Assembly (NCBI GenBank): GCA_030167145.1
Contig: CP126532.1
Span: 3,390,001-3,422,000 of the forward strand
Origin: Ktedonobacterales bacterium
Lineage (GTDB): Bacteria > Chloroflexota > Ktedonobacteria > Ktedonobacterales > JADMIN01
Length of the DNA stretch: 32,000 nucleotides
Direction of reading: 5' to 3'
The number at the start of each line of letters is the position of its first letter. Position 1 is the first letter of the stretch. Shown one piece after another: positions 1,658 to 18,247 of this stretch. The position numbers were made by a program, and so were the translations under genes. The notes below the pieces were generated by a model. It made no database searches and was not told where the DNA came from. It saw nothing but the letters and a program-made list of their open reading frames with translations.

Positions 1658-3271
1658 CTAGCCGCCGGTGACGCGGCGGGTGAAGGCGGCAATGAAGATG
1701 CCTTCGATGAGGAGGCCGAAGACGGCTTCGAGGCCGGAGAGGGCGGTGACGGTGTCGTTCTCGGTGAGACCCTTGGGTTGGAGGCCGCGCCCGTGGAAGG
1801 AGGTGACGCTGAGGACGAAGGAGTCGATGATGTTGCGGACGGTGGGGAGGACGAGCGCGTGATTGGCGCCGATCCAGAAGGCGAGTGCGAAGACGGTGAT
1901 GACGGTGGCGTAGGTGGCGAACAGGCGCCAGATTTCGTCGCCGTAGCCTGCGAAGGTGCCGAGGAGCCAGGAGAAGAGCCAGCGCCCATAGTGGCGGCTG
2001 TGCCAGTGGGCTTTGCGGTCCATGACCTCGGCGCGGTAGTGGTAGCGGGTGGCGGGGGCGGTGAGGCCCTGGCCACGCAGGGCGACAAAGAGCAGGCGGT
2101 AGGCACGACCAGCAGCTTTGTGCTCGGTGATACGCGTCTCGCGCGTCTTGCGTTTCTTGGCATCGGCAGCGGCATCACCAAGGGCAGTACCAGGGGCAGT
2201 ACCAGGGGCAGTACCAGGAGTGCCAGCCGTGGACGCTTTGGCGATCTGCTCATCTTGGAGGGTGCGGATGCGATCCCAGTCCACGGCGGTCAGGTTGACC
2301 GCACCCCAGTGGACATCAGCGAGTTGCGGACCGATGTCGCCCTTGGCTGCTGCTGTCCAGGTGACATCGGACATGTTTGTCGCCGTATCGAAGAAGGCTC
2401 CACTGAGGTCGGCTCCTTCCAGGTGCGCCCAGCTGAGGTCGGCTCCTTCCAGGTGCACCTCGATGAGGGCGGCCCCGTCGAGCTGCGCATAGCTGAGGTT
2501 GGCCCCGTCGAGCCGTGCCGCGCTGAGGGCGGCCCCGTCCAGATGTGCCCGCCCGAGGGTGGCCCCGTCCAGATGTGCCCAGCGGAGATCGACTTGCTCC
2601 AGGTGCGCCTCGTTGAGGTTGGCTTGCTCCAGGCGCGCCCCGAAGAGGTTGGCCCGTTCCAGGTGCGCCGAGCTGTGGTCGGCCCCCTCCAGATGCGCCC
2701 AGCTGAGGTTGGCCCCTTCCAGGTGCGCCTCGTTGAGGTTGGCGCCCTCCAGGTGCGCCCCGAAGAGGTTGGCGCCCTCCAGGTGCGCGGACCCGAGGTA
2801 CGCCCCGTCGAGGTGCGCCTCGCGGAGGTTGGCGCCCTCCAAGTGCGCCCCGAAGAGGTTGGCGCCCTCCAGGTGAAGGGGTGACAGATCCAGAGAAACC
2901 CGCAGAAGTATAGATATTCCGCTATATATTCCGCCCATATCCTCATCGTCGCGCGAGGCAAGCAGTTGTGCCTCCGCTTTGGCGAGATCCCCGTCGAGCC
3001 CGGCCAATGCCAGTGCGGCGAGCCAGAAGACCTCGGCGCCGGTGAGGCGCATGCCCTTGAGGGCACTACCCTCCGCGCTGCGCTGGGCATCGGGTTGGGC
3101 GGCCCAGGCACGTTGCTGCTCGGTGAGGTCACGCAGGTCGGACATGCGGCTTTCGGACGGCGTATAGCCATTGACGGCGTCGAGCCAGGATGCTTTGGAG
3201 GGGTCGGGGACGGCTGGTGGCATGGATCCGGGCTGGGGTTGGTCGGCTTGGTCGGCTTGGTCGTCGCTCAT
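1658..3271 (-). CDS. Pentapeptide-repeat protein fused to a C-terminal 2-TM ion-channel-like (Ion_trans_2-type) module
   Basis: 537-aa ORF with about 30 consecutive A(D/N)LxG-type pentapeptides (HLEGANLFGAHLEGANLREAHLDGAYL...). The C-terminus has FSWLLGTFAGYGDE (pore-like GYGD), flanked by hydrophobic helices. AGGAG lies 8 nt before the ATG at 3271. Confidence 0.85.
   Translation of the reverse strand: MSDDQADQADQPQPGSMPPAVPDPSKASWLDAVNGYTPSESRMSDLRDLTEQQRAWAAQPDAQRSAEGSALKGMRLTGAEVFWLAALALAGLDGDLAKAEAQLLASRDDEDMGGIYSGISILLRVSLDLSPLHLEGANLFGAHLEGANLREAHLDGAYLGSAHLEGANLFGAHLEGANLNEAHLEGANLSWAHLEGADHSSAHLERANLFGARLEQANLNEAHLEQVDLRWAHLDGATLGRAHLDGAALSAARLDGANLSYAQLDGAALIEVHLEGADLSWAHLEGADLSGAFFDTATNMSDVTWTAAAKGDIGPQLADVHWGAVNLTAVDWDRIRTLQDEQIAKASTAGTPGTAPGTAPGTALGDAAADAKKRKTRETRITEHKAAGRAYRLLFVALRGQGLTAPATRYHYRAEVMDRKAHWHSRHYGRWLFSWLLGTFAGYGDEIWRLFATYATVITVFALAFWIGANHALVLPTVRNIIDSFVLSVTSFHGRGLQPKGLTENDTVTALSGLEAVFGLLIEGIFIAAFTRRVTGG
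2395..2880 (-). repeat. Coding tandem repeats with 15/30-nt period (pentapeptide units), several copies identical at DNA level
   Basis: Exact 20-nt repeats 30 nt apart, e.g. ggccccgtccagatgtgccc at 2531 and 2561, and gaggtcggctccttccaggtgc at 2405 and 2435. gaggttggcgccctccaggtgcgc recurs between 2735 and 2870. All are in frame within the pentapeptide CDS. Confidence 0.8.
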
Positions 3272-5521: not shown

Positions 5522-8500
5522 TTAGCTGGCGAGGGTGGGGGAAGCGTAGGGGTGGTGGGTGGCGTCGGCGTAGGCGTCGTAGATGTGCTGGTAGAGGGCG
5601 TCGCATTTGGCGGCATAGGCGGTGGGGGTATAGGCGGCGGGAAGCTCGGTGTCGAGGACGGCGCGAATGGTGGTGAGGACGGCGGCGCGGGTGGCCTGGC
5701 GTTTCTTCCAGTCGAGGACGAGGTTCTGGTGTTTGAGGGTGGCGAGGAGGTCGCGGGCGGCGGTCTTGACCTGGTCGCGTTCTTTCTCGGTGAGGTGCGG
5801 GTCGGGGCGGGTGAGCAGATCGAAGATGGCGAGTTCTTCTTCGGTGAGGCGCTCGGCGGCGGCGCGCTGCTCTTCCGCAGTGAGGGAACGGGCGAGGGCG
5901 ACAAGTTGCTGGAAGAAGAGTTCGACGTTGAGGCTGCCGGTGTTGTAGTCGTCTATGAGGCGCTGGTAGGTGGCGAGATAGCTGGTGCGGCCACGGTTGA
6001 GGCGGACCATGCGGGCGAGGGTGGCGTTGATCTGGCTGCGGAGCTTTGCGGCTTCGGTGTGCTTGCGCGCGGTGGCGAACTGGGCCTGGAGCACGTCGAA
6101 GTCGAGCTGGCTGAGGTCTACGGGTTGGTGGGCGCTGGTGGTCGTACTGGCGCTGGGGTCGCCGTTGGCGTTGGTTGCGTCGGGCGCGCTGGTGACGGCG
6201 CGGATGAGGTAGCTGACGGGGAGGATGGAGGCGTCCAAGAGCTGGTTGAGGTCGTGCTTGAAGTCTTCGGGGAGCTTGCCGGTTTCTTCGATGGAGCGGA
6301 TCATGCGCGCGAGGACGGCGAAGAGGGCGACACGGGGCGCGAAGCGGTTTGCGGTGGGGTCGGGCAGGATGGCGCGGTAGAGTCCGGCGACGTGGGCGGC
6401 ATGGGCGAGGAAACGGCGCTTGGTGTCGTCGTTGGTGGTGAGGGCATCGAGGGCATCTTCAAGCAGGGCGATGCGCTGGAAGGGGTCAGTGGTGGCCTGG
6501 ATGGTGGCGGGGGTGACGCCGTGCTGCTGGCAGAAGGTGGTGGCGTCGTTGAGGGCAGCTTCGAGGGCTTCGACGAGTTGGTGCTTCTCCTGGATGGGGA
6601 GATCGCCAGCGGTGGTCGCGCCGCCGACACCTGCGCCATAGATGGCGAGCGCTTTTTGCAGGTTGCGGAAGATGCCGATGTAGTCCACGATGAGGCCGTT
6701 GGTTTTGTCGCCGAAGACGCGATTGGCGCGGGCGATGGTCTGCATGAGGGTGTGGTTGCGCTGGGGTTTATCGAGGTAGATGGTGGTGACGCTGGGGACA
6801 TCGAAGCCGGTCATCCACATAGCGCAGACGAAGACGAGGCGCAGCGGGTCGGCGGGGGCTTTGAACTTGGTTTCGAGGTCTTCGGTGACCATGCGGCGGC
6901 GGTGGGGTACGATGTCCGCGCCCTTCTTTTGCAGGTCGGTGACTTCGTTTTGCGAGGGGGAGACGACGACGGCCATATCGGTGGTTTCCATGTAGCGGAT
7001 GCGGGCGGCGAGGTCGTCGCGCTGGTCGGGCTGATCGGCTGGGATGAGGGGAAGCTGGGCGCGGAGGCGGTCGAGGTAGGCTTGCCAGGCGCGCTTGACG
7101 TGATCGTACATGCGTACAGCGGTGGCTTTATCTATGGAGACGACCATCGCTTTGCCGAGCTGGCCGCGCTGCATGAAGTGGGCGACGAGATCGTCGGCGA
7201 TGGTGGCGAGGCGTTCGCTGCGGGTGATGAGCTGGTATTCGCGGAGGAACTCGCGGTCGAGCTTCTGTTGCTGGGCGTCGTCGAGGTCGGCGGCTTCGAT
7301 GGCGTCGGCGATGTCGGTATCGAGGGCGGCGTTGGTGAGTTCGAGTTCGGGGATGCGGTTTTCGTAGTAGAGCGGTACGGTGGTGCCGTCTTCGACGCTC
7401 TGGCGGAAGTTGTAGACGCTGACGTAGTCGCCGAAGACCTGGCGGGTTTTCTCTTCGGTGGCGATGAGCGGGGTGCCGGTGAAGGCGAGGAAGGCGGCGC
7501 GCGGTAGGGCGTTCCGCATGTTGAGGGCGAGGGTGTCGTACTGGCTGCGGTGGGCTTCGTCGGTGATGACGATGAGATCGGAGCGGTCGGAGAGGGTGGG
7601 GTAGCGCGTGCCTGGCTCGGTGTGGAACTTTTGAATGAGGGTGAAGACGTAGCGATGGTCGGCGCGGAGCAGTTGCTGGAGGTGAGCGCCGCTGTTGGCG
7701 TGGACCTCCTTCTCTGGCTCGGTGACGGCGCCCGCGCTGGCAAAGGTTTTGTAGATCTGGTCGTCGAGTTCCTGGCGGTCGGTGACGATGAGGAAGGTCC
7801 AGTTGCCGGGGAGCTTGCGCAGCACCTTTTGGGCGAAGAAGACCATGGAAAGGCTTTTGCCGCTGCCCTGGGTGTGCCAGAAGACGCCGAGACGGCCCTG
7901 ATTCTCGCGGATGGAGCGGGTGGCGGCGAGGGCGTTGTTGACGCCGAGGTACTGGTGATTTTTGGCGAGCAGCTTGATGGTGGGGCCGGTGGCGTCGCTA
8001 AAGAGGGTGAAGTTTTCGATGTAGTCGAGCAGGCGGGTGGGGTCGCAGAGGCCACGCAGGGCGGTATCGAGGGAGACGATGCCCTGCTCGCCCTCCTCGG
8101 AACGGCTCGGAGGGGCTTCACCTCGCCTACGGCTCGGCTCGCCCTCGCTGGTGATGCGTTTCCACTCGAAGAAGTGTTCCCAGCCAGCGGTGAGGCTGCC
8201 GATGCGAGTCTCGCGGCCATTGGAGAGCAGGATGAGGGCGTTGTACCAGAAGAGGTGGGGGATACTGGTTTTGTAGTCGGTGAGGTTGTGGTCGTAGGCG
8301 TCTTGCAGGCGGCGATGGGCGGCTTTAAGTTCGATAAAGACGAGGGGAAGGCCGTTGACGAAGCCGAGCAGGTCGGGGCGGCGGTGGTAGATGTCGCCGT
8401 TGACGCGGAGTTGGGAGACGAGGAGCAGGTCGTTGTTGGCGGGGGTGGACCAGTCTATGACGGTGATACGCAGGTCTTGCCCTTCGGCGGCTTGGGGGCT

Positions 8501-8842
8501 GTCGCTGGCGCTGTTGGTGTCGGAGGTGCGGATGCGGACGGGGACGCCGTCTTTGAGGAGGCGGTAGACATCGTGGTTGGCGGCGACGGGGGTTTGGGTG
8601 GAGCGGTCGCGGGTGAGTTCGGCGATGGCGGCTGCGATGGCGGCGGCGGGCGCGGTGGGGTTGAGGCGCTGGAGGGCGGGACGGAGACGCTGGGTGAGGA
8701 CGACTTCGGCGCGGGTCTCGCGGCCAAGCGTGCCGGTGGGGCCGTAGGTTTCGTCGAAGGCGTTGAGGGTTTGCCAGCCGAGGGCGGCAAACAAGGCGAT
8801 GGCGGGCTGTTCGATGAGGGCGTCTTCGGAATAGGTGCGCAT
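5522..8842 (-). CDS. hsdR: Type I restriction enzyme, R (restriction/helicase) subunit
   Basis: N-terminus YSEDALIEQPAIALFAALGW is typical of HsdR_N. SF2 helicase motifs are present: WHTQGSGKSLSM (Walker A/motif I), VITDEAHRSQ (DEAH), FTGTP. The C-terminal LTEEELAIFDLLT is typical of the HsdR C-terminal helical domain. Start assigned to ATG 8842, preceded by AGGAG about 10 nt upstream; the ORF track's 8893 start adds an R/P-rich leader. Confidence 0.95.
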   Translation of the reverse strand: MRTYSEDALIEQPAIALFAALGWQTLNAFDETYGPTGTLGRETRAEVVLTQRLRPALQRLNPTAPAAAIAAAIAELTRDRSTQTPVAANHDVYRLLKDGVPVRIRTSDTNSASDSPQAAEGQDLRITVIDWSTPANNDLLLVSQLRVNGDIYHRRPDLLGFVNGLPLVFIELKAAHRRLQDAYDHNLTDYKTSIPHLFWYNALILLSNGRETRIGSLTAGWEHFFEWKRITSEGEPSRRRGEAPPSRSEEGEQGIVSLDTALRGLCDPTRLLDYIENFTLFSDATGPTIKLLAKNHQYLGVNNALAATRSIRENQGRLGVFWHTQGSGKSLSMVFFAQKVLRKLPGNWTFLIVTDRQELDDQIYKTFASAGAVTEPEKEVHANSGAHLQQLLRADHRYVFTLIQKFHTEPGTRYPTLSDRSDLIVITDEAHRSQYDTLALNMRNALPRAAFLAFTGTPLIATEEKTRQVFGDYVSVYNFRQSVEDGTTVPLYYENRIPELELTNAALDTDIADAIEAADLDDAQQQKLDREFLREYQLITRSERLATIADDLVAHFMQRGQLGKAMVVSIDKATAVRMYDHVKRAWQAYLDRLRAQLPLIPADQPDQRDDLAARIRYMETTDMAVVVSPSQNEVTDLQKKGADIVPHRRRMVTEDLETKFKAPADPLRLVFVCAMWMTGFDVPSVTTIYLDKPQRNHTLMQTIARANRVFGDKTNGLIVDYIGIFRNLQKALAIYGAGVGGATTAGDLPIQEKHQLVEALEAALNDATTFCQQHGVTPATIQATTDPFQRIALLEDALDALTTNDDTKRRFLAHAAHVAGLYRAILPDPTANRFAPRVALFAVLARMIRSIEETGKLPEDFKHDLNQLLDASILPVSYLIRAVTSAPDATNANGDPSASTTTSAHQPVDLSQLDFDVLQAQFATARKHTEAAKLRSQINATLARMVRLNRGRTSYLATYQRLIDDYNTGSLNVELFFQQLVALARSLTAEEQRAAAERLTEEELAIFDLLTRPDPHLTEKERDQVKTAARDLLATLKHQNLVLDWKKRQATRAAVLTTIRAVLDTELPAAYTPTAYAAKCDALYQHIYDAYADATHHPYASPTLAS

Positions 8843-8904
8843 GGTGGGTGGTCTCCTACGTGGCGGGAAGTTGAAAGTGCGCGACGGGCGCATGCCGTGC
8901 GCCC

Positions 8905-10011
8905 CTACGATGGCTGGTAGCCGGGAAACCCGCTTGTGCGGGGTGGGATGGTGACTGGGAACATGTCGGAGTGGGATTCGTGCGGAATGAGTTCGATGAC
9001 GATGAAATGGTCGTCTAGGTATTTCAGCAGGGATTCCAGGGTAGTTGCCCCCAACGCAAGCCCTGCCTCGGCCTCACCAACAATGCTCCACTCGATGGTG
9101 GGGTTATCGCTGCGGAGCCTGACACCTTGGATAGTTAGGTGAGAGTGCGCGCCGTTGGACTTTCTGACGACGGCAAAGGCTGAACGCTGGAGGTCGTCGC
9201 GGTGTAAGCAATGTTGCCGTATGGCATCGGGTGTCGGGGGTGTGAACTTCAGCAGTTTTAGAAGCGCATCCAGAAGGAGTCGCTGATCGTTCCCACGTGT
9301 CATGCTGAGGAACAGGGGGCGCTCGGATACAAGATCGGCGTGCAGCGATGGCCCTTTCTGTAGGGCAAGGCGGAGATAATGCAACGCGCTCTCTGGCTCC
9401 TTCTGGAGCGCGCGAATCTGAGCCATGTAATACTCAGGCTGGCCGGGGTCCTGTGAGTCGCTCGCTTCCAATGCACGCTGCGCCCAATATCCAGCTCGCG
9501 CAAGTGATTTTTCACGTGTCGGGGGCCAACTTACAGCAACATTGATGTGCGCAGCTGCCATCAGTACAGCAGCATTAGGTAAATCGGGGACTTCTTCAAG
9601 GATGCGCTCGATTTCCGGTTCTTTGACATCGAGCGGCGCGGGCCAAAGCAACGTGAACTCTCCCATTGCGCGGATGCGCTTGTGCAGGTCTTTGGTGAGG
9701 TCAGTTTTGATGACATCGAGCTTCTGCGCCACCACCTGCTCCACGCGCTGATCGAGCCGGAACCACTGGAAGGCGACGACGATAGCGCCGAGGATGGCAA
9801 GCATGGCGGCCATGATGCCCGCAATGGTGGCCGCGAAACCGGCAACAGACCACGGATCGCCGCGAAGGGGAAGTACGAGTACGAGCATGAGGGTGACAAT
9901 CAACAGGACGATGACGACGGCGATTGCGACGACGAAGGTAATCGCAAGGGACCGTGACGACTTTTGACCGAGCATCGTGCTACTCTCGACTTTCACTCTC
10001 CGGTGTTTCAC
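8905..10011 (-). CDS. Hypothetical 2-TM membrane protein with helical (TPR-like?) and C-terminal soluble domains, embedded between hsdS and hsdR
   Basis: Two strong hydrophobic helices: LAITFVVAIAVVIVLLIVTLMLVLVL and VAGFAATIAGIMAAMLAILGAIVVAF. The soluble region has repeat-like helices (YWAQRALEASD..., YYMAQIRALQKEPESALHYLRLALQKG). Co-directional and tightly packed with its neighbours. Alternative start at ATG 9975, 4 nt after the upstream stop. Confidence 0.7.
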   Translation of the reverse strand: MKHRRVKVESSTMLGQKSSRSLAITFVVAIAVVIVLLIVTLMLVLVLPLRGDPWSVAGFAATIAGIMAAMLAILGAIVVAFQWFRLDQRVEQVVAQKLDVIKTDLTKDLHKRIRAMGEFTLLWPAPLDVKEPEIERILEEVPDLPNAAVLMAAAHINVAVSWPPTREKSLARAGYWAQRALEASDSQDPGQPEYYMAQIRALQKEPESALHYLRLALQKGPSLHADLVSERPLFLSMTRGNDQRLLLDALLKLLKFTPPTPDAIRQHCLHRDDLQRSAFAVVRKSNGAHSHLTIQGVRLRSDNPTIEWSIVGEAEAGLALGATTLESLLKYLDDHFIVIELIPHESHSDMFPVTIPPRTSGFPGYQPS

Positions 10012-11026
10012 CAGTTGGGTCGGGCGCTGCGGCAGATGGGGTTAGCTCTTGCACCAAGTGCTGCCCCATCAGGCTTAGGATTTGGGCAAGGCGGGTTATT
10101 TCGTCAGGTGTGAGGGATATTTTGTGGCCGACGATGGCCTGCGGGTCGTTGGCGCGCTTCACGTAGTCCTCGTCAATCACGCCTGCCTTGTGAGCGAGTA
10201 GATGGCGTTTCTGGAAGCAGCGGCAGGCAAACTGCCAGTCGTCGGGGGGTGTAGAGGCTGCGAGGTCAAGGTTGAAGAACTGCTGCACGCGCTTTTGCGC
10301 GCCTGGGAGGTTCTGGAAGGAGAGATTTTCGACCTTGTCGGGAGATGTTGCCTGGGCGGCATGGATGCGGCAGGTTTCGCGCCCGAAGGCGTCGAACGCG
10401 GATACTTGAGCCTGAAGAGCATTTGCAATGAGTTGTGCGGCGAGATTGGGATCAAAATCGGAGTCAACCTGTGCAGCGGACGCTGCTATTTTCTCGGCTA
10501 CTTCGAGGTTCTTCTGTAGGATTTGGAATGAGTTGTGGATACCGCAGTCGGGACAATACGCGAAGACGCCGTAGATGGCATAGCGCAGGGTGCAGTTCGC
10601 GCAGATGACATGAGTTTCAAGCTGCTCCTCCAGGTAGTGGAGGATGGGCGGTGGTGTGGTTTCAATCTTCAGACTCAAGCCGATTCCGAACGGGCCAGTA
10701 GGTGGCATGTCGAATTCATACGGTTTCAGTTGGTCTGCGAGATAGTTTGTAACCTCGCCCTCAAAAATGGACAGGACATACGCGCGTTGGTCGGGTGTTA
10801 AAAATCTGTCCGCTTCCGCGGCATGGCCGCAATAGGGACAGTAGCTCTGCGCGACAGCTGGGAGGCCGGTACCAAAGGTGACCTTAAAATAGCGCTGGCA
10901 TGCAGGATCAGGGCATTGGCGACCAGTGTAGCCGTTTTCGTCGGTCGGTAGTGTGATCCGCATTTGGAAACGGGTAGCATCTTCATCTTCGTCGGTGACG
11001 GTTTCGGCTCTATCGTCATCGTTCAT
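9980..11026 (-). CDS. Double zinc-ribbon protein with a C-terminal HEPN-like helical domain (R-x4-H), embedded between hsdS and hsdR
   Basis: Two CxxC...CxxC ribbons: CPDPAC...CPYCGH and CANC...CPDCG. The C-terminal helical region contains CFQKRHLLAHKAGVIDEDYV, i.e. RHLLAH, which fits the HEPN R-x4-H motif with a polar residue after R. The ORF starts 3 nt after the hsdS stop. GC is about 50% by hand count, versus about 70% in hsdR. Confidence 0.7.
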   Translation of the reverse strand: MNDDDRAETVTDEDEDATRFQMRITLPTDENGYTGRQCPDPACQRYFKVTFGTGLPAVAQSYCPYCGHAAEADRFLTPDQRAYVLSIFEGEVTNYLADQLKPYEFDMPPTGPFGIGLSLKIETTPPPILHYLEEQLETHVICANCTLRYAIYGVFAYCPDCGIHNSFQILQKNLEVAEKIAASAAQVDSDFDPNLAAQLIANALQAQVSAFDAFGRETCRIHAAQATSPDKVENLSFQNLPGAQKRVQQFFNLDLAASTPPDDWQFACRCFQKRHLLAHKAGVIDEDYVKRANDPQAIVGHKISLTPDEITRLAQILSLMGQHLVQELTPSAAAPDPTGETPESESRE

Positions 11027-11029
11027 GGG

Positions 11030-12379
11030 TTAGTCTCCTATCTCGATTGCGATGTGCTCCACGTCTAGCTCGCCGGAGATGAGCTTGGGCAAGAGGAGGT
11101 CGCGGGTGCGGCGGAGGGTGTCGCAAGTATCAGCTAGATTGGACGATGTCAGATCCGAAAAAGTGCTCATCGCCAATGCCCGCAACGACTTGTCATTGGG
11201 AAGTGCTAGGTATTCGGACTGGACAAACCTGGTTGCTTGAAAGTTGCCGATGCCGTTTGTAGCGACATTTTGATAGAACGCCATTCGACCTTCATCATGT
11301 AGGTACTTCAAGTGTAAATGCATGAGCGGCCCCATTTGTGGTTCCTTGGGGCGAAACAATTTGCAGAAACTCGCGCAAATTACGTCGCCTCCTAGCCTGC
11401 GAAGAATGCCAGAGGTGATAAGAAGGCTCTTCCCGATAGTTCGGCTATTGGCATTGACTGAGTTTTCCACGATCAGGTCGCCGGGCCTGAGTGTACGCGC
11501 TTTGAGGCTGCGTTCACTAATGAAGCGAACGGGTGCTCGTGAGTGATTTCCAAGACGAATATCATCGAAGTCTGTACCTCTAATTACCGTTACTGGCCGT
11601 GTATCCTCCGCCGTTGGATCACCACTCCCCCAGTCACCTCCAAGCGTCAAGTCTAGCAGGTCGGCGTAGGTGGCCATCTGCCAGCCGGAGGGGATGGGGC
11701 CGAATGGGCTGTCAGTCATCTCATACGCTGCGTGGCCGGGAAAGCGGAAATGGACGAACCATTCGCGGTAGAGGGTGCGGGCGAGGTCTTCGAGGAGGGC
11801 GATACGGCGGGTGTTGTTTTCGATGAGGTCGTCGTATGCAGAGAGGATGGCGGCGATTTTGCGCTGGATGGGGAGGGGCGGGAATCGCACCTGTGCGCTC
11901 TTAAGAGTAGTAAGTGGACTTGAAATTGCTGGAACACCAGAGCCTCCAGCATGGCTCAGAAGCTCGTGCTGACCGAATTCGGATCGGAAATAGTAGTACA
12001 GAAACGCGGGCAAGACCTTTGATTCATCGCAGGTGAGTTTCATTTGGCTTTGGGATACTACGTAGCGACTGAATTGTCCTCTAGGAATCAGCCCCACCTG
12101 GCCCAGAGTACCTCGGTGTGTAAACACTAGATCATCTGGGTAGGCATTGCTCGCCCTCAGTTCGTCTGCCTTCTCTTCTGAGATATAGACCAAGTCGTCG
12201 TGGCTAAATCTGTCGCCAGCGATGTTTGTACCGCGAATTACGGGTACTCCGAACGGAATGAAGTTGTCCTTTGTTATCCGTGAGCCGAACGGCCCCATAG
12301 CGAGGGCGTGTTTCACATTTGCGGCAATTTCGGCGACTTCTACGGATTTCCATATGGCCGTCGTGGCAGTCGTAGCCAT
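11030..12379 (-). CDS. hsdS: Type I restriction-modification specificity subunit
   Basis: Two target-recognition halves are separated by the conserved central helix LPPLPIQRKIAAILSAYDDLIENNTRRIALLEDLARTLYREWFVHFRFPGH. The terminal helix is LRRTRDLLLPKLISGELDV. Start set at ATG 12379, which overlaps the upstream stop (TGATG) and follows GGAGGTG. Confidence 0.9.
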   Translation of the reverse strand: MATTATTAIWKSVEVAEIAANVKHALAMGPFGSRITKDNFIPFGVPVIRGTNIAGDRFSHDDLVYISEEKADELRASNAYPDDLVFTHRGTLGQVGLIPRGQFSRYVVSQSQMKLTCDESKVLPAFLYYYFRSEFGQHELLSHAGGSGVPAISSPLTTLKSAQVRFPPLPIQRKIAAILSAYDDLIENNTRRIALLEDLARTLYREWFVHFRFPGHAAYEMTDSPFGPIPSGWQMATYADLLDLTLGGDWGSGDPTAEDTRPVTVIRGTDFDDIRLGNHSRAPVRFISERSLKARTLRPGDLIVENSVNANSRTIGKSLLITSGILRRLGGDVICASFCKLFRPKEPQMGPLMHLHLKYLHDEGRMAFYQNVATNGIGNFQATRFVQSEYLALPNDKSLRALAMSTFSDLTSSNLADTCDTLRRTRDLLLPKLISGELDVEHIAIEIGD

Positions 12380-12960
12380 CACTTCACCTCCGACGGGGTC
12401 GCAAGCTCGCGGCGGCACAGGTCTGCAAGATAGAAAATGGCTTTCATTACCTCGGTTACGGTGGTAATGAGATAGAACTCCATCAAAGAAAACAGAACTG
12501 GGTCAGCATGCCACACCTGATAGATTCGCGCTTTGGCCTCATCGGAATGTATGATCTCGCCGTAAAAGAAGACATCGGCTACTTCGCGGTGTGTGTATGC
12601 TTTCCCGTCCACGATAACGGGGATTGGTTCATCGAAGAGAAAATCCACTGTCTGGTTTACATCTCGAAATTCACTTTTCCAAGTCTCGGAGATGTCAGGG
12701 CTGATAAGGAGCGCGGACATGGCGCTGAAGGATACTAGCTCCTTCTTTAGGAAGAACTGCCGAAACGTCGCTCCGGCCGCTATGATCGCCTCGGGGTCTG
12801 GTCCCGTGTGGTGGGCGTAGACTCCTTCATCCATACTCATGCGCACGGAATACTCAACTCCGCCCTGCTCTACTATGCGCTTGGCGAAACTTAGATTCCG
12901 TAGCTTGTCGGCTTTCTCGACAAATTGCTCTAGCCGCTTTCTGGTGCGATCATCCATCAT
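12379..12960 (-). CDS. Hypothetical protein (~193 aa), translationally coupled to hsdS
   Basis: ORF with normal composition and GC of about 47% (one 60-nt hand count). GGAGGTGGA lies immediately before tandem ATGs at 12960 and 12957. Its stop overlaps the hsdS start. No recognisable family. Confidence 0.65.
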   Translation of the reverse strand: MMDDRTRKRLEQFVEKADKLRNLSFAKRIVEQGGVEYSVRMSMDEGVYAHHTGPDPEAIIAAGATFRQFFLKKELVSFSAMSALLISPDISETWKSEFRDVNQTVDFLFDEPIPVIVDGKAYTHREVADVFFYGEIIHSDEAKARIYQVWHADPVLFSLMEFYLITTVTEVMKAIFYLADLCRRELATPSEVK

Positions 12961-13013
12961 TCCACCTCCGGTAGCACGGTACTGGCGAATTCTGTGGTTC
13001 ACGGGTTATGTGC

Positions 13014-13373
13014 TCAACTCATTTGCTTGAGGTCAATACATAGGGCGATGCCGTCGGCGAGGGCGTCTACGTCTGCTTGTGAGAGCGCGCCGACTTTGGC
13101 CACCAACCGCTCGATAGCGACGCAGCGAACTTGCAGCACGTTGCCACACGAGTCATGGGTGAGACCATTGGACAGGTCGGGCTGGAGCGGGACCATAAAG
13201 GACCACGCGGCAAACTTGGGTTGCCACGTGGTGATCGGGACAATGATCCGTAACCGTTGACTATCAAAGGCGGGCGAGCTGATAACGGCGGCAGGGCGGC
13301 GCTTTCGCATTTCCGCGCCGCGTGTTGGGTCCAGGTCCACGGTCCAGATTTCGCCGCGTGTTGGACTACTCAT
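13014..13373 (-). CDS. mazF: MazF/PemK-family type II toxin (endoribonuclease)
   Basis: The N-terminus RGEIWTVDLDPTRGAEMRKRRPAAVISS is the classic PemK/MazF signature. Size (119 aa) is typical. The ATG overlaps the upstream gene by 8 nt. Confidence 0.9.
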   Translation of the reverse strand: MSSPTRGEIWTVDLDPTRGAEMRKRRPAAVISSPAFDSQRLRIIVPITTWQPKFAAWSFMVPLQPDLSNGLTHDSCGNVLQVRCVAIERLVAKVGALSQADVDALADGIALCIDLKQMS

Positions 13374-14577
13374 CCGTGTATTCCCACTCCTCCCAATCGT
13401 CGCTATCCAGCGCGTTAAATTCGGTCAGTTCAGGATTGGTGCGGTACTCTTCGGCGGCTGCTTCGGCTGCTTCGGCGAGGATGCGATGGCGTTCCTCACG
13501 GGGCATGCGCAGCAGGTCGCGGGCGGTGTAGGTGCGCCCGGCGGGCTGGGCGGCGGGTTGGGGTGTGAGGCAGCCGGGGCAGAGTTGGAGGGCGCGTTCC
13601 TCGGTGATGATGCCTTCGGCGAAGGCGCGGAGGGTCATCTGTTTGAGGCGGGTTGGCTCTTCGGGCGCTTCGCATGCCACCGGTTCGCGAACGGTGGCCT
13701 CGCGTGCAACGAATTCGGCGCGCAAGCGGTCGTACTGCCCGCGGTCAATGACATCTAGCTCCAGTGCGCGGTGAGTCCAGGCTTGCATGCTGAGGCCGTA
13801 TTTGCATTTGAGCATGCCCAACTCGTCGAAGCTGAGGTGGCGGCGGCGGTCGCCTAGCTCGCGGCGCGCGACCTCAGCGGGGACAAGGAATGCGCCGGCA
13901 AACCGGTTCGCCAGCGCTTCATCGTCGCCATTTTCGGGTTCAGTGGACGGCGACAGGATGTGTTTCAATTCGTGAGCGAGGCTAAATCGGCGGCGATCTG
14001 GGGCGGTGCTCGTGTTGACGACGATGAACGGCGCGCGCTGATTGATCCACGCGGCGAGACCGTCAAAGCGGCCCTCGTCTTGGTCCCAGCCGACAATGAC
14101 GCCGCCGTGATCTTCGATGGTCTGGGTCACACTTTCGATGGGAGCGGTGCCGAGACCCCACGCGCGGCGAAGATCCAGCGCCGCTGCTTCGGCCTCGTCG
14201 AATGTGCTGATGTTCAGGGCGGGTACTCGTGGCTGGTCGTTGGAGTACAGAATGGATTGGAGCCAGCACTGACCTTCGGCGACATTGAGCGCGGCCGCCT
14301 TGATCTGCTCCTGACGCGCGGGCGCAAGCTGCGCATGCTTGCGGAAGGCCAGCCACTGAACGGTCAACTCTGGCTCCGCGAGGAAATAGGACGAGGGAAC
14401 GGTCAGCACGCGCGCCAGCTTCAACAGGAGCGATGCGCTGGGAGTGCTGCCGTTATGTTCGTACTTGGAAAGTCCCTGCTTGGTGATGGCCTGGCCTAAC
14501 TCGCCCAGGCGTTGCGCGACCTCGTCGAGGGTTAGCCCTGCCGCCAGGCGGGCCTGACGCATGCGGTTACCGATCAT
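13366..14577 (-). CDS. XRE-family HTH + ImmA/IrrE (M78, COG2856) zinc-metallopeptidase fusion with an acidic Trp-rich C-terminal tail; putative MazF antitoxin/regulator
   Basis: HTH: IGNRMRQARLAAGLTLDEVAQRLGELGQAITKQGLSKYEHNGSTPSASLLLKLARVLTV. HExxH: SLAHELKHIL, followed by ANRFAGAFLVPAE. The tail TNPELTEFNALDSDDWEEWEYTDE resembles the MazE C-terminus ([21 protein letters not shown]). Start at ATG 14577, with GGAGGA 7 nt upstream. Confidence 0.85.
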   Translation of the reverse strand: MIGNRMRQARLAAGLTLDEVAQRLGELGQAITKQGLSKYEHNGSTPSASLLLKLARVLTVPSSYFLAEPELTVQWLAFRKHAQLAPARQEQIKAAALNVAEGQCWLQSILYSNDQPRVPALNISTFDEAEAAALDLRRAWGLGTAPIESVTQTIEDHGGVIVGWDQDEGRFDGLAAWINQRAPFIVVNTSTAPDRRRFSLAHELKHILSPSTEPENGDDEALANRFAGAFLVPAEVARRELGDRRRHLSFDELGMLKCKYGLSMQAWTHRALELDVIDRGQYDRLRAEFVAREATVREPVACEAPEEPTRLKQMTLRAFAEGIITEERALQLCPGCLTPQPAAQPAGRTYTARDLLRMPREERHRILAEAAEAAAEEYRTNPELTEFNALDSDDWEEWEYTDE

Positions 14578-14624
14578 GGCTGTTTCCTCCCCCGCTGTTG
14601 ACGAAAATAGCGATATAGTATGTG

Positions 14625-14640
14625 TTGTCCATGTGGACAA
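14625..14640. promoter_or_regulatory. Perfect palindrome TTGTCCA-tg-TGGACAA upstream of the XRE-ImmA/mazF pair; candidate operator
   Basis: 7-bp inverted repeat with a 2-nt spacer, 48 nt upstream of the XRE-ImmA start, in the 104-nt hsdM-XRE gap. On the minus strand a TTGACA hexamer (complement of 14661-14666) and TA-rich -10-like hexamers (tactatat) flank it. Confidence 0.5.
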
Positions 14641-14681
14641 GTTACCATGTTTTCCACAAGTTGTCAACATCAAGGGCGCAT

Positions 14682-16244
14682 TCATTCTGCTTCCAGGAGG
14701 GCGGCGACGTTGGCGGAGATGCGGTCTTCGAGGGTGTGGGCCTCGGCGTTGAGACGTTCGAGTTCTTCGTGTAGCTCTTCGAGGCGCTCGCGGAAGTCGA
14801 AGTCATCGGGGGCGCGCTCGGCGACGCCGACATAGCGGCCGGGGTTGAGGCTCCAGCCCTGGGCGGCGATCTGGGCGCGGGTGGCGACACGGCAGAGGCC
14901 GGGGACATCGCGGTAGACGCCATCGGGGAACTGCGCGGCGAGGAGGGCGGCGCTGTCGTGGGCGTTCTCGACGGGTTCGCCGCGATAGAGGCGGACAATG
15001 TTGGCGAGGTATTCGATCTGCTGGGGGGTGAACTCGCGGTGGGCGCGGTCGAGCTGGTGGAAGATGTGGCGGGCGTCGAGGAAGAGGACGGTATCGCCGC
15101 GCGGGGTGGAGCGTTTGGCTTTATCGAAGAACCAGAGGGTGCAGGGGAGGGTGACGGTGTAGAAGAAGTTGGGGCCGACGGAGACCATGACATCTACGAC
15201 GCCATCTTCGATGAGCTTCTGGCGGATGACCTGCTCGGAGGCGCGGGCATCGCTGGCGGAGTTGGCCATGACGAACCCGGCGCGGCCCTGGGGATTGAGG
15301 GCGCTATAGAATTCCTGAATCCACAGGTAGTTGGCGTTATCCACGCGGGGCATTCCGAAGGGGTAGCGGGCGTGGTCGCCCTTGATCTTCTCTTTGTCCA
15401 CGCCGTCGGCGTTGAAGGGGGGATTGGCCATGACGAACTCGAAGCGACCGACGCAGTTGTGGACGTTCTGGTAGTAGGTGTTGGCCTCTTTGATGTCGCC
15501 GGAGAGGCCATGCACGGCCAGGTTCATTTTGCAGAGGCGGATGGTCTCGCGGGTCTTTTCTTGGCCGTAGAGCGAGATGGTGTTGGTGGGGTTCTGCTGG
15601 TGATTGCGGACGAAGCGGGCGCTCTGGACGAACATACCGCCGGAGCCACAGGCGGGGTCCAGAATGCGGCCATGGAACGGCTCGATGACCTCGACGATGA
15701 GCTTGACGATGGGGGTGGGGGTGAAGAACTCGCCGCCGCGCTGGCCTTCGAGCTTGGCGAACTCGCTGAGGAAGTATTCGTAGATTTTGCCGAAGACATC
15801 GCCTTCCAGGTCCATGGGAATCGCGGAGAAGATTTTGAGCAGCGCCCAGAGCGTGTCTTTTTCGAGGCGGTTGTAGGATTTGGGGAGGGTGTCTTTGAGG
15901 TCGGGGTTCTCGGCCTCGATGGCGTGCATGGCAGCGGTAACGGCTTTGGCGATGTCGTCGCCTTCGGGCAGGCGCAGGAGGGTGGAGTAGCGGGCGGCTT
16001 CGGGAACGTACATGACGCCGCGCGCCTGGTAGTCGGCTTTATCTATGGTGCGGCGGCTATTGGGTGGGAGGGAGGCGGCGAGTTCGGCCTGGGCGTGGGT
16101 GAACTTGTGGTCGGCGAAGCGCAGGAAGATGAGGCCGAGGACGGGGACGGAGTATTCGGAGGCGCGGAGGCCGGAGTTGGTGCGGAGTTGGTCGGCGGAG
16201 TCCCAGAGTTTGGATTCGAGGGCGGCGTGGTTGTTGGCGGGCAT
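14682..16244 (-). CDS. hsdM: Type I restriction-modification DNA methyltransferase subunit (N6-adenine)
   Basis: HsdM_N-type N-terminus [36 protein letters not shown]. AdoMet motif [12 protein letters not shown]. Catalytic NPPF in [10 protein letters not shown]. Confidence 0.95.
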
Positions 16245-17176: not shown

Positions 17177-18247
17177 TCAAGCGACGGGAGCCAGGAGAAC
17201 CTCTCGCGCCATGTATTGTGCTGCCATGGTTGTCGAGATCCTGCGGTCGCGCGCCGTGGTGAGAACACGTTGCATGGTATGGTAGATGTTTTCTGTTTTC
17301 TTCAGAGCCGCAGCCTCATCGTATCCATCGGGGGCAAGTTCCTGGGCGACATTGATCAAACCTCCGGCGTTGGCGACGTAATCCACACCATAGAGGATGC
17401 TTCGGGCATGGAGGAGTTCGCCCGCTGCCTCTTCGTCGAGCTGGTTGTTTGCACTGCCAACGACTGCGCGACAGCGCAAGCGAGGGATTGTGGTGGAGTT
17501 GAGAACAGCGCCATAGGCGCAGGGCGCAAACACATCACAATGTGTCTCGAACAGCGCATCAGGCTCAACAGTGGCGATACCAAAGTCGCGATTCGCGGCG
17601 ATTGCCAGCTCGGGGCGCACGTCGGCCGCAGTGACAGACGCACCCTCTGCCAGGAGGGTTGGGACGAGGCGCATGCCAACATTACCAAGGCCCTGGACGG
17701 CGACGTGCAGACCATCGAGTGATGAACTACCAAAGGCATCCTGGGTGATGGCTTTCATAGCCCAGACGACGCCACGGGCGGTTACTGGCGCGGGATCTCC
17801 GCTTCCATGTTCCTCGCGCGGTAGGCCAGCGACGTACATGGTGGAGCGTTTCATAATGGCCAGATCGCCTGGTGTGATGTTGGCGTCTTCTGCCGTGATG
17901 AAGCGACCGCGCAGATTATCAACGATCTGCGCATAGGCGATGAGGCGGGCGGCACGTATCTCTGGAATCGCCCACTCAGCACCTTCGGCCTCGCTGAAGT
18001 ATGGAATAACGGCCTTTCCCCCGCCCAAGCTCAGACCAGCAAGCGCGGTCTTGTAGGTCATACCTTCGGAGAGGCGCAAGACATCATGTCTGGCGGCGTC
18101 GAGAGATGGATACCATTTGAGGCGCGTTCCTCCAATCGCTGGCCCCAAGCGCGTGGAGTGTATGGCAATCAGCGCGTGTAAATCCGTGGCTGGATCGTGA
18201 TGGATGGCCAGGAGTTCATGGGTGTCATCAAATCGGTGAGATGTCAT
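17177..18247 (-). CDS. Glu/Leu/Phe/Val dehydrogenase family enzyme, leucine/valine/phenylalanine dehydrogenase type
   Basis: AIGGTRLKWYPSLDAARHDVLRLSEGMTYKTALAGLSLGGGKAVI carries the family catalytic Lys motif (GGGK). The Rossmann motif VAVQGLGNVG is present. 356 aa fits LeuDH/PheDH size. Confidence 0.9.
   Translation of the reverse strand: MTSHRFDDTHELLAIHHDPATDLHALIAIHSTRLGPAIGGTRLKWYPSLDAARHDVLRLSEGMTYKTALAGLSLGGGKAVIPYFSEAEGAEWAIPEIRAARLIAYAQIVDNLRGRFITAEDANITPGDLAIMKRSTMYVAGLPREEHGSGDPAPVTARGVVWAMKAITQDAFGSSSLDGLHVAVQGLGNVGMRLVPTLLAEGASVTAADVRPELAIAANRDFGIATVEPDALFETHCDVFAPCAYGAVLNSTTIPRLRCRAVVGSANNQLDEEAAGELLHARSILYGVDYVANAGGLINVAQELAPDGYDEAAALKKTENIYHTMQRVLTTARDRRISTTMAAQYMAREVLLAPVA

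Follow-up and report, generated by a model that had tools for sequence, protein, structure and literature searches.

What do the two genes between hsdS and hsdR, the slot also used by PrrC, encode in a Type I restriction-modification (R-M) operon of a Ktedonobacterales metagenome-assembled genome, and do they act together? The window analysed here, a stretch of 32,000 nucleotides (nt) of contig CP126532.1 (assembly GCA_030167145.1, positions 3,390,001 to 3,422,000), holds both genes on its minus strand, each annotated as coding for a hypothetical protein. A reading made from the sequence alone had proposed that the first codes for a putative RNase or sensor combining zinc ribbons with a HEPN-like domain, the second for its membrane partner. 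Gene calls and hsd profile matches agree with the position assigned to both open reading frames (ORFs). The first, OJF49_003251 (9980-11026, minus strand; 348 amino acids (aa)), corresponds to a 100% database match and is called here the zinc-ribbon gene; the second, OJF49_003250 (8905-9975, minus strand), is an ORF identical to the NCBI call and codes for a protein with two transmembrane helices, hereafter the 2-TM protein. We estimate at about one half the probability that the zinc-ribbon protein unites sensor and effector as a self-contained defence protein, which would provide an abortive layer behind restriction.

The zinc-ribbon protein belongs to a large and widespread family. A search of 5.8 billion proteins found at least 2000 homologues, and the best 120 of them (47-58% identity) are all unnamed and devoid of Pfam domains, with Planctomycetota and Methanoperedens among their sources. 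A pattern scan of the GTDB species representatives yielded 142 confirmed relatives, and the 80 loci kept as a sample come from over 12 phyla of bacteria and from two lineages of archaea. Scans with Pfam, NCBIfam and PADLOC revealed no Pfam or NCBIfam model covering either the full protein or its HEPN-like domain. The two ribbons are made of eight cysteines (C38/C43, C63/C66, C142/C145 and C158/C161). The sequence-only reading had described both as CxxC...CxxC; two Cys4 ribbons are indeed present, but the first pair is a Cx4C (CPDPAC) and not a CxxC. All eight cysteines are conserved in 25 close homologues, seven being invariant and C161 being absent in one sequence. Full-length homologues at 20-35% identity were also found on plasmids by tblastn, and in these the cysteines are again conserved, five of them invariant and three nearly so.

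The N-terminal double Cys4 zinc-ribbon domain (residues 20-164; 10535-10969, minus strand) matches the PADLOC model PDC-M14A (E = 6.2e-16), as do 10 of 10 diverse family members, which match no other PADLOC model at E up to 10. The earlier statement that neither protein belongs to a described family is thus contradicted for this domain, but it stands for the HEPN-like domain and for the 2-TM protein, neither of which has a family in Pfam, NCBIfam or PADLOC. PDC-M14 is a PADLOC candidate that Payne et al. (bioRxiv 10.1101/2024.01.29.577857) obtained by 'guilt by embedding', a screen in which it surfaced through its location inside BREX, DISARM or Type I R-M systems as the cassette FAM_02625>>FAM_00494 (count 247), and the M14A ribbon family is also paired with FAM_00644. 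The double ribbon of the zinc-ribbon protein is homologous to M14A, but whereas PDC-M14 consists of two genes, ribbon and M14B, the ribbon is here fused to a HEPN-like domain in one protein and there is no M14B: PADLOC detected a match to M14B in neither the zinc-ribbon protein nor the downstream 2-TM protein. Since an M14A-type ribbon is joined to a C-terminal domain that is not M14B, the zinc-ribbon protein represents the ribbon module fused to a different effector, and the N-terminal ribbon is, to judge from these sequence matches, a shared and exchangeable module. A genuine PDC-M14 was encountered on a plasmid of Lysinibacillus fusiformis (locus L091, 6007-7254), where a ribbon M14A of 144 aa (E = 1e-52) is followed with zero gap by a helical M14B of 270 aa (E = 3.7e-91), with a gene for an HTH regulator upstream and an Abi_2 gene nearby. 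Reading the translation of this M14B revealed no Rx4H motif.

The C-terminal domain (residues 165-330; 10037-10534, minus strand) is predicted to be all-helical. The AlphaFold2 (AF2) model, with a predicted local distance difference test (pLDDT) of 82-96 over residues 160-330, places helices at residues 166-184, 195-221, 261-279 and 307-328, and a helical insert at residues 229-258. HEPN domains are defined as four-helix up-down bundles in which an insert separates helices 2 and 3, helix 3 ends in an Rx4-6H motif whose arginine is followed by a polar residue (N, D or H), and helix 2 contains a second conserved acidic residue, often within Ex3[KR] (Anantharaman et al. 2013, PMC3710099). Model and alignments together display both the bundle with its helix 2-3 insert and the Rx4-6H motif, polar residue included, at the end of helix 3. 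The motif RHLLAH (residues 274-279; 10190-10207, minus strand), a putative RNase active site comprising R274, H275 and H279, is located at the C-terminal end of the helix 261-279, the third core helix. In helix 2, D212-x3-R216 resembles Ex3[KR], though among close homologues only.

A R-[polar]-x3-H pattern arises by chance in 15% of shuffles of the zinc-ribbon protein, so that the mere presence of RHLLAH is weak evidence and its conservation must carry the argument. The sequence-only reading, which had noticed the motif and the polar residue after its arginine, had itself included conservation of the arginine and histidine in the test. The motif, read from the translation, is invariant in all alignments. 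Among the 25 close homologues R274, H275 and H279 are invariant together with D212, G215, R216, F237 and Q238; among the plasmid homologues the invariant positions are R274, H275, H279, G282, D285, F237 and Q238. Across 20-58% identity, no positions in the C-terminal domain are better conserved than R274, H275 and H279. When the full model was compared with the PDB by Foldseek, the matches of best probability (0.2-0.41) and target-normalised TM-score (0.46-0.62) were HEPN toxins of the HepT/SO_3166 type (6m6u, 6m6w_G, 5yep_C and 8yuf), at non-significant E of about 2.6-3; the highest-ranking of them reach a probability of 0.33-0.41 and a TM-score of 0.57-0.62, with 5yep_C and 6m6w_G at about 0.6. 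We therefore consider it likely that the C-terminal domain is HEPN-like, on the strength of the motif, the topology and weak fold evidence rather than of homology statistics.

The same model was compared with viral protein structures in BFVD. Only one match is significant (E = 3e-4, probability 1.0, 193 aligned columns); it is to A0A8S5NVI2, a Siphoviridae protein that is uncharacterised and hence uninformative, and a second phage protein was found at E = 0.03. Structural relatives of the zinc-ribbon/HEPN-like protein, as far as a comparison of models can tell, may thus be carried by phages or prophages.

In its genomic context the family is linked to Type I R-M. Genes for Hsd proteins were found within 8 kb in 40 of the 80 loci by phmmer with the Hsd proteins of the window. 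In these R-M loci nearly all genes are co-directional and ordered hsdM...hsdS-gene-...hsdR, a layout shared by the single relative found in IMG/VR. The sequence-only reading had noted that the zinc-ribbon gene starts 3 nt after hsdS, and the junction is indeed a TAA stop, CCC, then ATG. This tightness extends well beyond the present genome: hsdS lies directly upstream in 21 scorable loci, and the distance from its stop to the start of the gene is -4 nt, an ATGA overlap, in 13 of them, -1 in three, +1 in one, +2 in three and +30 in the last, so that 20 of 21 fall between -4 and +2 nt. Clustering of the neighbours within five genes revealed Hsd proteins as the only recurrent ones; the downstream neighbour is not conserved. 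The interval between the gene and hsdR contains SIR2-HerA in three R-M loci and, in others, Thoeris-like ThsA/ThsB TIR proteins, UvrD, a KAP NTPase, DUF1828/1829 or further genes, and in L008, L015 and L036 no gene is called in it. The hsdS-hsdR gap hence behaves as a general insertion hotspot, or landing pad, for defence cargo, with complete systems of known kind or other cargo at, for example, L017 7709-10767, L052 9025-12053 and L063 9040-11891. This makes genes of no known family, such as the 2-TM gene and orf207 (described below), reasonable candidates.

Away from R-M genes, the zinc-ribbon gene is found beside CBASS (four loci), MmeI-type enzymes (three), integrases and HTH-M78 regulators, and the plasmid copies adjoin PifA, a PLD-like gene or nothing recognisable. 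On the Sinorhizobium meliloti plasmid pSmeSM11a (L089, 4691-7939), 27 nt separate a full-length homologue of PifA (PADLOC PifA, 856 bits) from the distant zinc-ribbon homologue (23% identity) behind it; identical matches suggest that several S. meliloti plasmids share this arrangement. Nearest neighbours in the family tree share the type of context more frequently than random pairs (0.67 vs 0.49, p = 0.005), and subclades reach non-R-M to R-M ratios of 2:13, 5:10 and 17:1; both contexts nonetheless occur throughout the tree. This intermixing argues that the protein can act autonomously.

The 2-TM protein was examined as the proposed partner. Its length had been given as 368 aa, which would need an upstream GTG start overlapping the previous gene by 32 nt; from the ATG, its most likely start, the protein has 356 aa and is identical to OJF49_003250. 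The description of two N-terminal transmembrane helices followed by a soluble, repeat-like domain agrees with hydropathy and structure prediction. Hydrophobic segments cover residues ~5-42 and ~42-75, and the two transmembrane helices (residues ~8-66; 9778-9954, minus strand) are supported by Kyte-Doolittle windows above 1.6 and by AF2 helices at residues 3-34 and 41-110. The AF2 model (pLDDT 86.6) consists of a transmembrane hairpin, a stalk helix reaching residue 110, a repeat domain (residues 115-257) and a small alpha/beta C-terminal domain. The top Foldseek matches of the repeat domain are CHIP, STUB1 and other TPR domains (probability 0.8-0.93, E 0.1-0.4, target-normalised TM-score ~0.47); NCBIfam TPR_END_plus matches the protein at E = 1.5e-4 and 21.6 bits, below its cut-off of 32 bits, and Pfam TPR_14 at E = 0.3. 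An identity of the membrane module with SLATT was considered and rejected, NCBIfam SLATT_1 reaching only E = 0.17 and 11.9 bits against a cut-off of 41 bits, with no SLATT in the Pfam matches of 19 family members.

The family of the 2-TM protein is small. A word-index search returned only the protein itself, and an exhaustive HMMER search of 1.84 billion representatives gave 75 matches, of which about 20 are full length. Its hidden Markov model (HMM) has a match in none of the 80 zinc-ribbon loci. Conversely, in each of five contexts 2-TM homologues are found in a defence or mobile setting with no zinc-ribbon gene nearby, for example with Mrr and a PLD/kinase-helicase as neighbours, with a Type I R-M system, an OLD-like ATPase and a NERD protein in the vicinity, upstream of genes for HicAB and for a ResIII enzyme, or amid integrases and resolvases. 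Because neighbour clustering, the family HMM search and the contexts of its homologues all fail to show pairing, we judge the 2-TM/TPR-like protein to be independent embedded cargo and not a partner of the zinc-ribbon protein. It may be a membrane-anchored, single-gene defence candidate in its own right.

We propose that the zinc-ribbon gene is a recurrent cargo of Type I R-M operons, placed directly behind hsdS and translationally coupled to it, a coupling through which its product would be made together with the R-M complex. The double zinc ribbon would serve for sensing or docking, and the domain to which it is fused would be a metal-independent RNase of a divergent HEPN type with R274, H275 and H279 as putative active site. 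We infer that the protein is probably latent until an infection triggers it; it would then cleave RNA (tRNA, rRNA or mRNA) and stop translation, so that RNA cleavage would form a second, abortive line of defence behind restriction. Several results weigh against this proposal, most of them concerning the HEPN assignment, for which the motif and the helix 2-3 insert were found but no significant profile or structure match. With 25 full-length members and 15 reduced to the domain, Pfam showed no HEPN family at E up to 5-10, and permissive Pfam scans of family members returned only zinc-ribbon noise or random single matches. Profile searches of PDB sequences gave nothing relevant; a match to a designed armadillo-repeat protein (E = 0.003) was discarded as a repeat or compositional artefact. 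Alignment of the C-terminal domain with the Abi_2 (PF07751) profile by hhalign reached a probability of 0.1% and E = 0.52, this non-significant alignment setting RHLLAH on RNAAAH, and every match of the full model to the PDB by Foldseek has E of at least 0.3. In helix 2, position 212 is Q or E at 20-25% identity (D in one sequence) and position 216 is variable. Moreover, PDC-M14A, the model matched by the ribbon, is itself only a candidate, and the conserved tight coupling to hsdS could reflect dependence on the R-M complex instead of autonomy.

Such dependence is the core of a reading in which the protein is a guard of the PrrC kind, bound and held inactive by HsdM2S or by the full R-M complex, with an RNase that fires once an anti-restriction protein from a phage has put the complex out of action; the ribbons would then be a docking surface for Hsd proteins and not a phage sensor. 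In its favour are the shared hsdS-hsdR slot, the fixed hsdS-gene-hsdR order of the R-M loci, the spacing in 20 of 21 loci, which implies co-production at a set ratio, and the subclades enriched for R-M (2:13 and 5:10), and it has a precedent in PrrC, which is almost exclusively embedded in Type I R-M (bioRxiv 10.1101/2024.01.29.577857). This reading is weakened by the absence of hsd genes within 8 kb from half of the 80 loci, by a subclade of 17:1 in favour of non-R-M contexts, by plasmid copies standing beside PifA, a PLD-like gene or nothing recognisable, and by the lack of an ABC-ATPase regulatory domain like that of PrrC, and we regard it as possible though rather unlikely. A bolder form, which we advance with slightly more reserve, is that the family would be a second, convergently evolved and ATPase-free guard of Type I enzymes, kept at a fixed ratio with HsdS by start-stop coupling, its ribbons docking on the methylase/specificity core and its HEPN RNase being released when anti-restriction proteins disable the complex, in many bacterial phyla and in methanogenic archaea.

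The protein might alternatively be no nuclease at all, but a zinc-ribbon accessory binding nucleic acid or protein and regulating R-M through assembly, restriction alleviation or expression control, with RHxxxH serving in binding or the helical bundle being other than HEPN. The non-significant comparisons with catalytic HEPN proteins in both sequence and structure, the 15% of shuffles that contain the pattern, and weak zinc-ribbon matches that include the Lar restriction-alleviation protein and HypA are all in keeping with such a role; yet the motif residues are the most conserved of their domain and are placed exactly as HEPN catalytic residues, and half of the family resides outside R-M loci but in defence islands, which leaves this explanation improbable. 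Least probable by far is the two-gene abortive-infection system, a zinc-ribbon/HEPN sensor-RNase acting with a 2-TM membrane effector, that the sequence-only reading had put forward. A gap of 4 nt separates the two genes within the operon, and small ORFs with two transmembrane helices follow the zinc-ribbon gene in L006, L010, L011 and L038, but the pairing is largely refuted by distribution: the 2-TM HMM finds 0 of 80 zinc-ribbon loci, the five contexts of 2-TM homologues have no zinc-ribbon gene, some 20 full-length 2-TM representatives contrast with at least 2000 zinc-ribbon homologues, no downstream neighbour is conserved, hsdR comes next after the zinc-ribbon gene, with no gene called in between, in at least three loci, and the slot elsewhere holds known independent systems.

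The zinc-ribbon gene shares its operon with other cargo. The operon comprises eight tightly packed genes on the minus strand (5.5-16.2 kb of the window). Its first gene is hsdM, coding for the Type I methyltransferase (14682-16244, minus strand; Pfam N6_Mtase 1.6e-80 and HsdM_N, PADLOC MTase_I 1e-221). There follow genes for an HTH + M78 peptidase protein (13366-14685, minus strand; PADLOC RmrA 1.5e-44, NCBIfam spr1629-type antitoxin) and for a MazF/PemK toxin of 119 aa (13014-13373, minus strand; Pfam 1.3e-22), orf207 (12379-13002, minus strand; 207 aa, no family), the specificity gene hsdS (11030-12418, minus strand; Pfam Methylase_S 1.2e-13, PADLOC Specificity_I 1e-61), the zinc-ribbon and 2-TM genes, and finally the restriction gene hsdR (5522-8893, minus strand; Pfam HSDR_N, SWI2_SNF2, T1R_D3-like and T1RH-like_C, PADLOC REase_I 2e-170). 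From hsdM to hsdR, the first junction is an ATGA overlap and the second an overlap of 8 nt; a gap of 11 nt and an overlap of 1 nt follow, and the last three junctions are gaps of 3, 4 and 11 nt. The 4 nt separate the TAG stop of the zinc-ribbon gene from the ATG of the 2-TM gene, and the last 11 nt precede the start of hsdR. The G+C content is 0.52-0.58 across 9-13 kb, a region containing hsdS and embedded genes, against 0.62-0.65 in hsdM and hsdR, which suggests that the middle of the operon was separately acquired or exchanged. Scans for promoters and terminators found no more of them in the operon than expected by chance.

Between hsdM and hsdS, an RmrA-like HTH + M78 gene, matched by RosmerTA antitoxin models, overlaps the MazF/PemK gene by 8 nt (13014-14685, minus strand) in the manner of a toxin-antitoxin pair. 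Judged from these matches, it would be a pair of Rosmer-type antitoxin and MazF-type toxin inside an R-M operon. The stop codon of the adjacent orf207 shares 1 nt with the probable ATG of hsdS; its product has no match in Pfam, NCBIfam or PADLOC and is missing from the 80 related loci, and orf207 is a further piece of embedded cargo of no known family. The operon is flanked, on the minus strand, by genes for a pentapeptide-repeat protein and a Glu/Leu/Phe/Val dehydrogenase (1658-3271 and 17177-18247), both housekeeping-like; consequently, the R-M operon appears to be an island in an ordinary chromosome.

How does the zinc-ribbon protein compare with known systems? PrrC and RloC combine an N-terminal ABC-ATPase regulatory domain with a C-terminal HEPN nuclease. 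The zinc-ribbon protein resembles them in its hsdS-hsdR slot, in its C-terminal motif of the HEPN-type Rx4H form and in its expected role as a latent suicide RNase backing up restriction. It differs in having two Cys4 ribbons in place of the ABC-ATPase: no NTPase was matched in it by Pfam, NCBIfam or PADLOC, and PADLOC models of PrrC or RloC match neither the protein nor 10 diverse members of its family. Furthermore, PrrC is almost exclusively R-M-embedded (bioRxiv 10.1101/2024.01.29.577857), unlike the zinc-ribbon loci, half of which lie outside R-M.

Closer in architecture is RAZR/PD-T7-4, the ring-activated zinc-finger RNase, whose zinc finger, on binding rings of phage portal or recombinase, switches on a HEPN RNase (Nature 2026, PMC13017515). 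Both are single polypeptides with an N-terminal Cys4 zinc ribbon and a C-terminal divergent HEPN or HEPN-like domain, and in RAZR the outcome is abortive-infection defence with the zinc domain as infection sensor. RAZR however has one short zinc finger, connected by a linker (residues 66-79) to a HEPN domain of the DUF4145 type that contains R146 and H154; in the present protein the double ribbon spans ~145 aa and the motif is Rx4H. RAZR, moreover, is not described as R-M-embedded. DUF4145 (PF13643) was not matched by Pfam in the zinc-ribbon family; RAZR is set apart here by description and models. HEC-08, a validated system embedded in Hma whose defence needs the histidine of its HEPN Rx4-6H motif (bioRxiv 10.1101/2024.01.29.577857), likewise unites HEPN and zinc finger or ribbon in one protein embedded in another defence system, but in reversed order (N-terminal DUF3644 HEPN, C-terminal zinc fingers), with another HEPN family, with Hma instead of Type I R-M as host and with no sequence match. 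The 'HEPN + zinc ribbon (Npun_R5629)' fusion that appears in a listing by Anantharaman et al. 2013 might be the zinc-ribbon family.

HEPN suicide RNases embedded in R-M and sensors combining zinc finger and HEPN are thus already known, and the ribbon module is already a PADLOC candidate; in the literature searched, we found no description of the fused family, of its effector domain or of its strict coupling to hsdS. If the activity is confirmed, a common and currently unannotated defence gene would be added to genome annotation, the coupling between restriction and abortive infection would gain a second, ATPase-free system for study, and the PDC-M14A ribbon would prove to be an exchangeable sensor used with different effectors. 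By its sequence the zinc-ribbon family differs from PrrC, RloC, HEC-08 and, on the basis given above, RAZR, and it is a large family of bacteria and archaea with an unusually strict linkage to hsdS.

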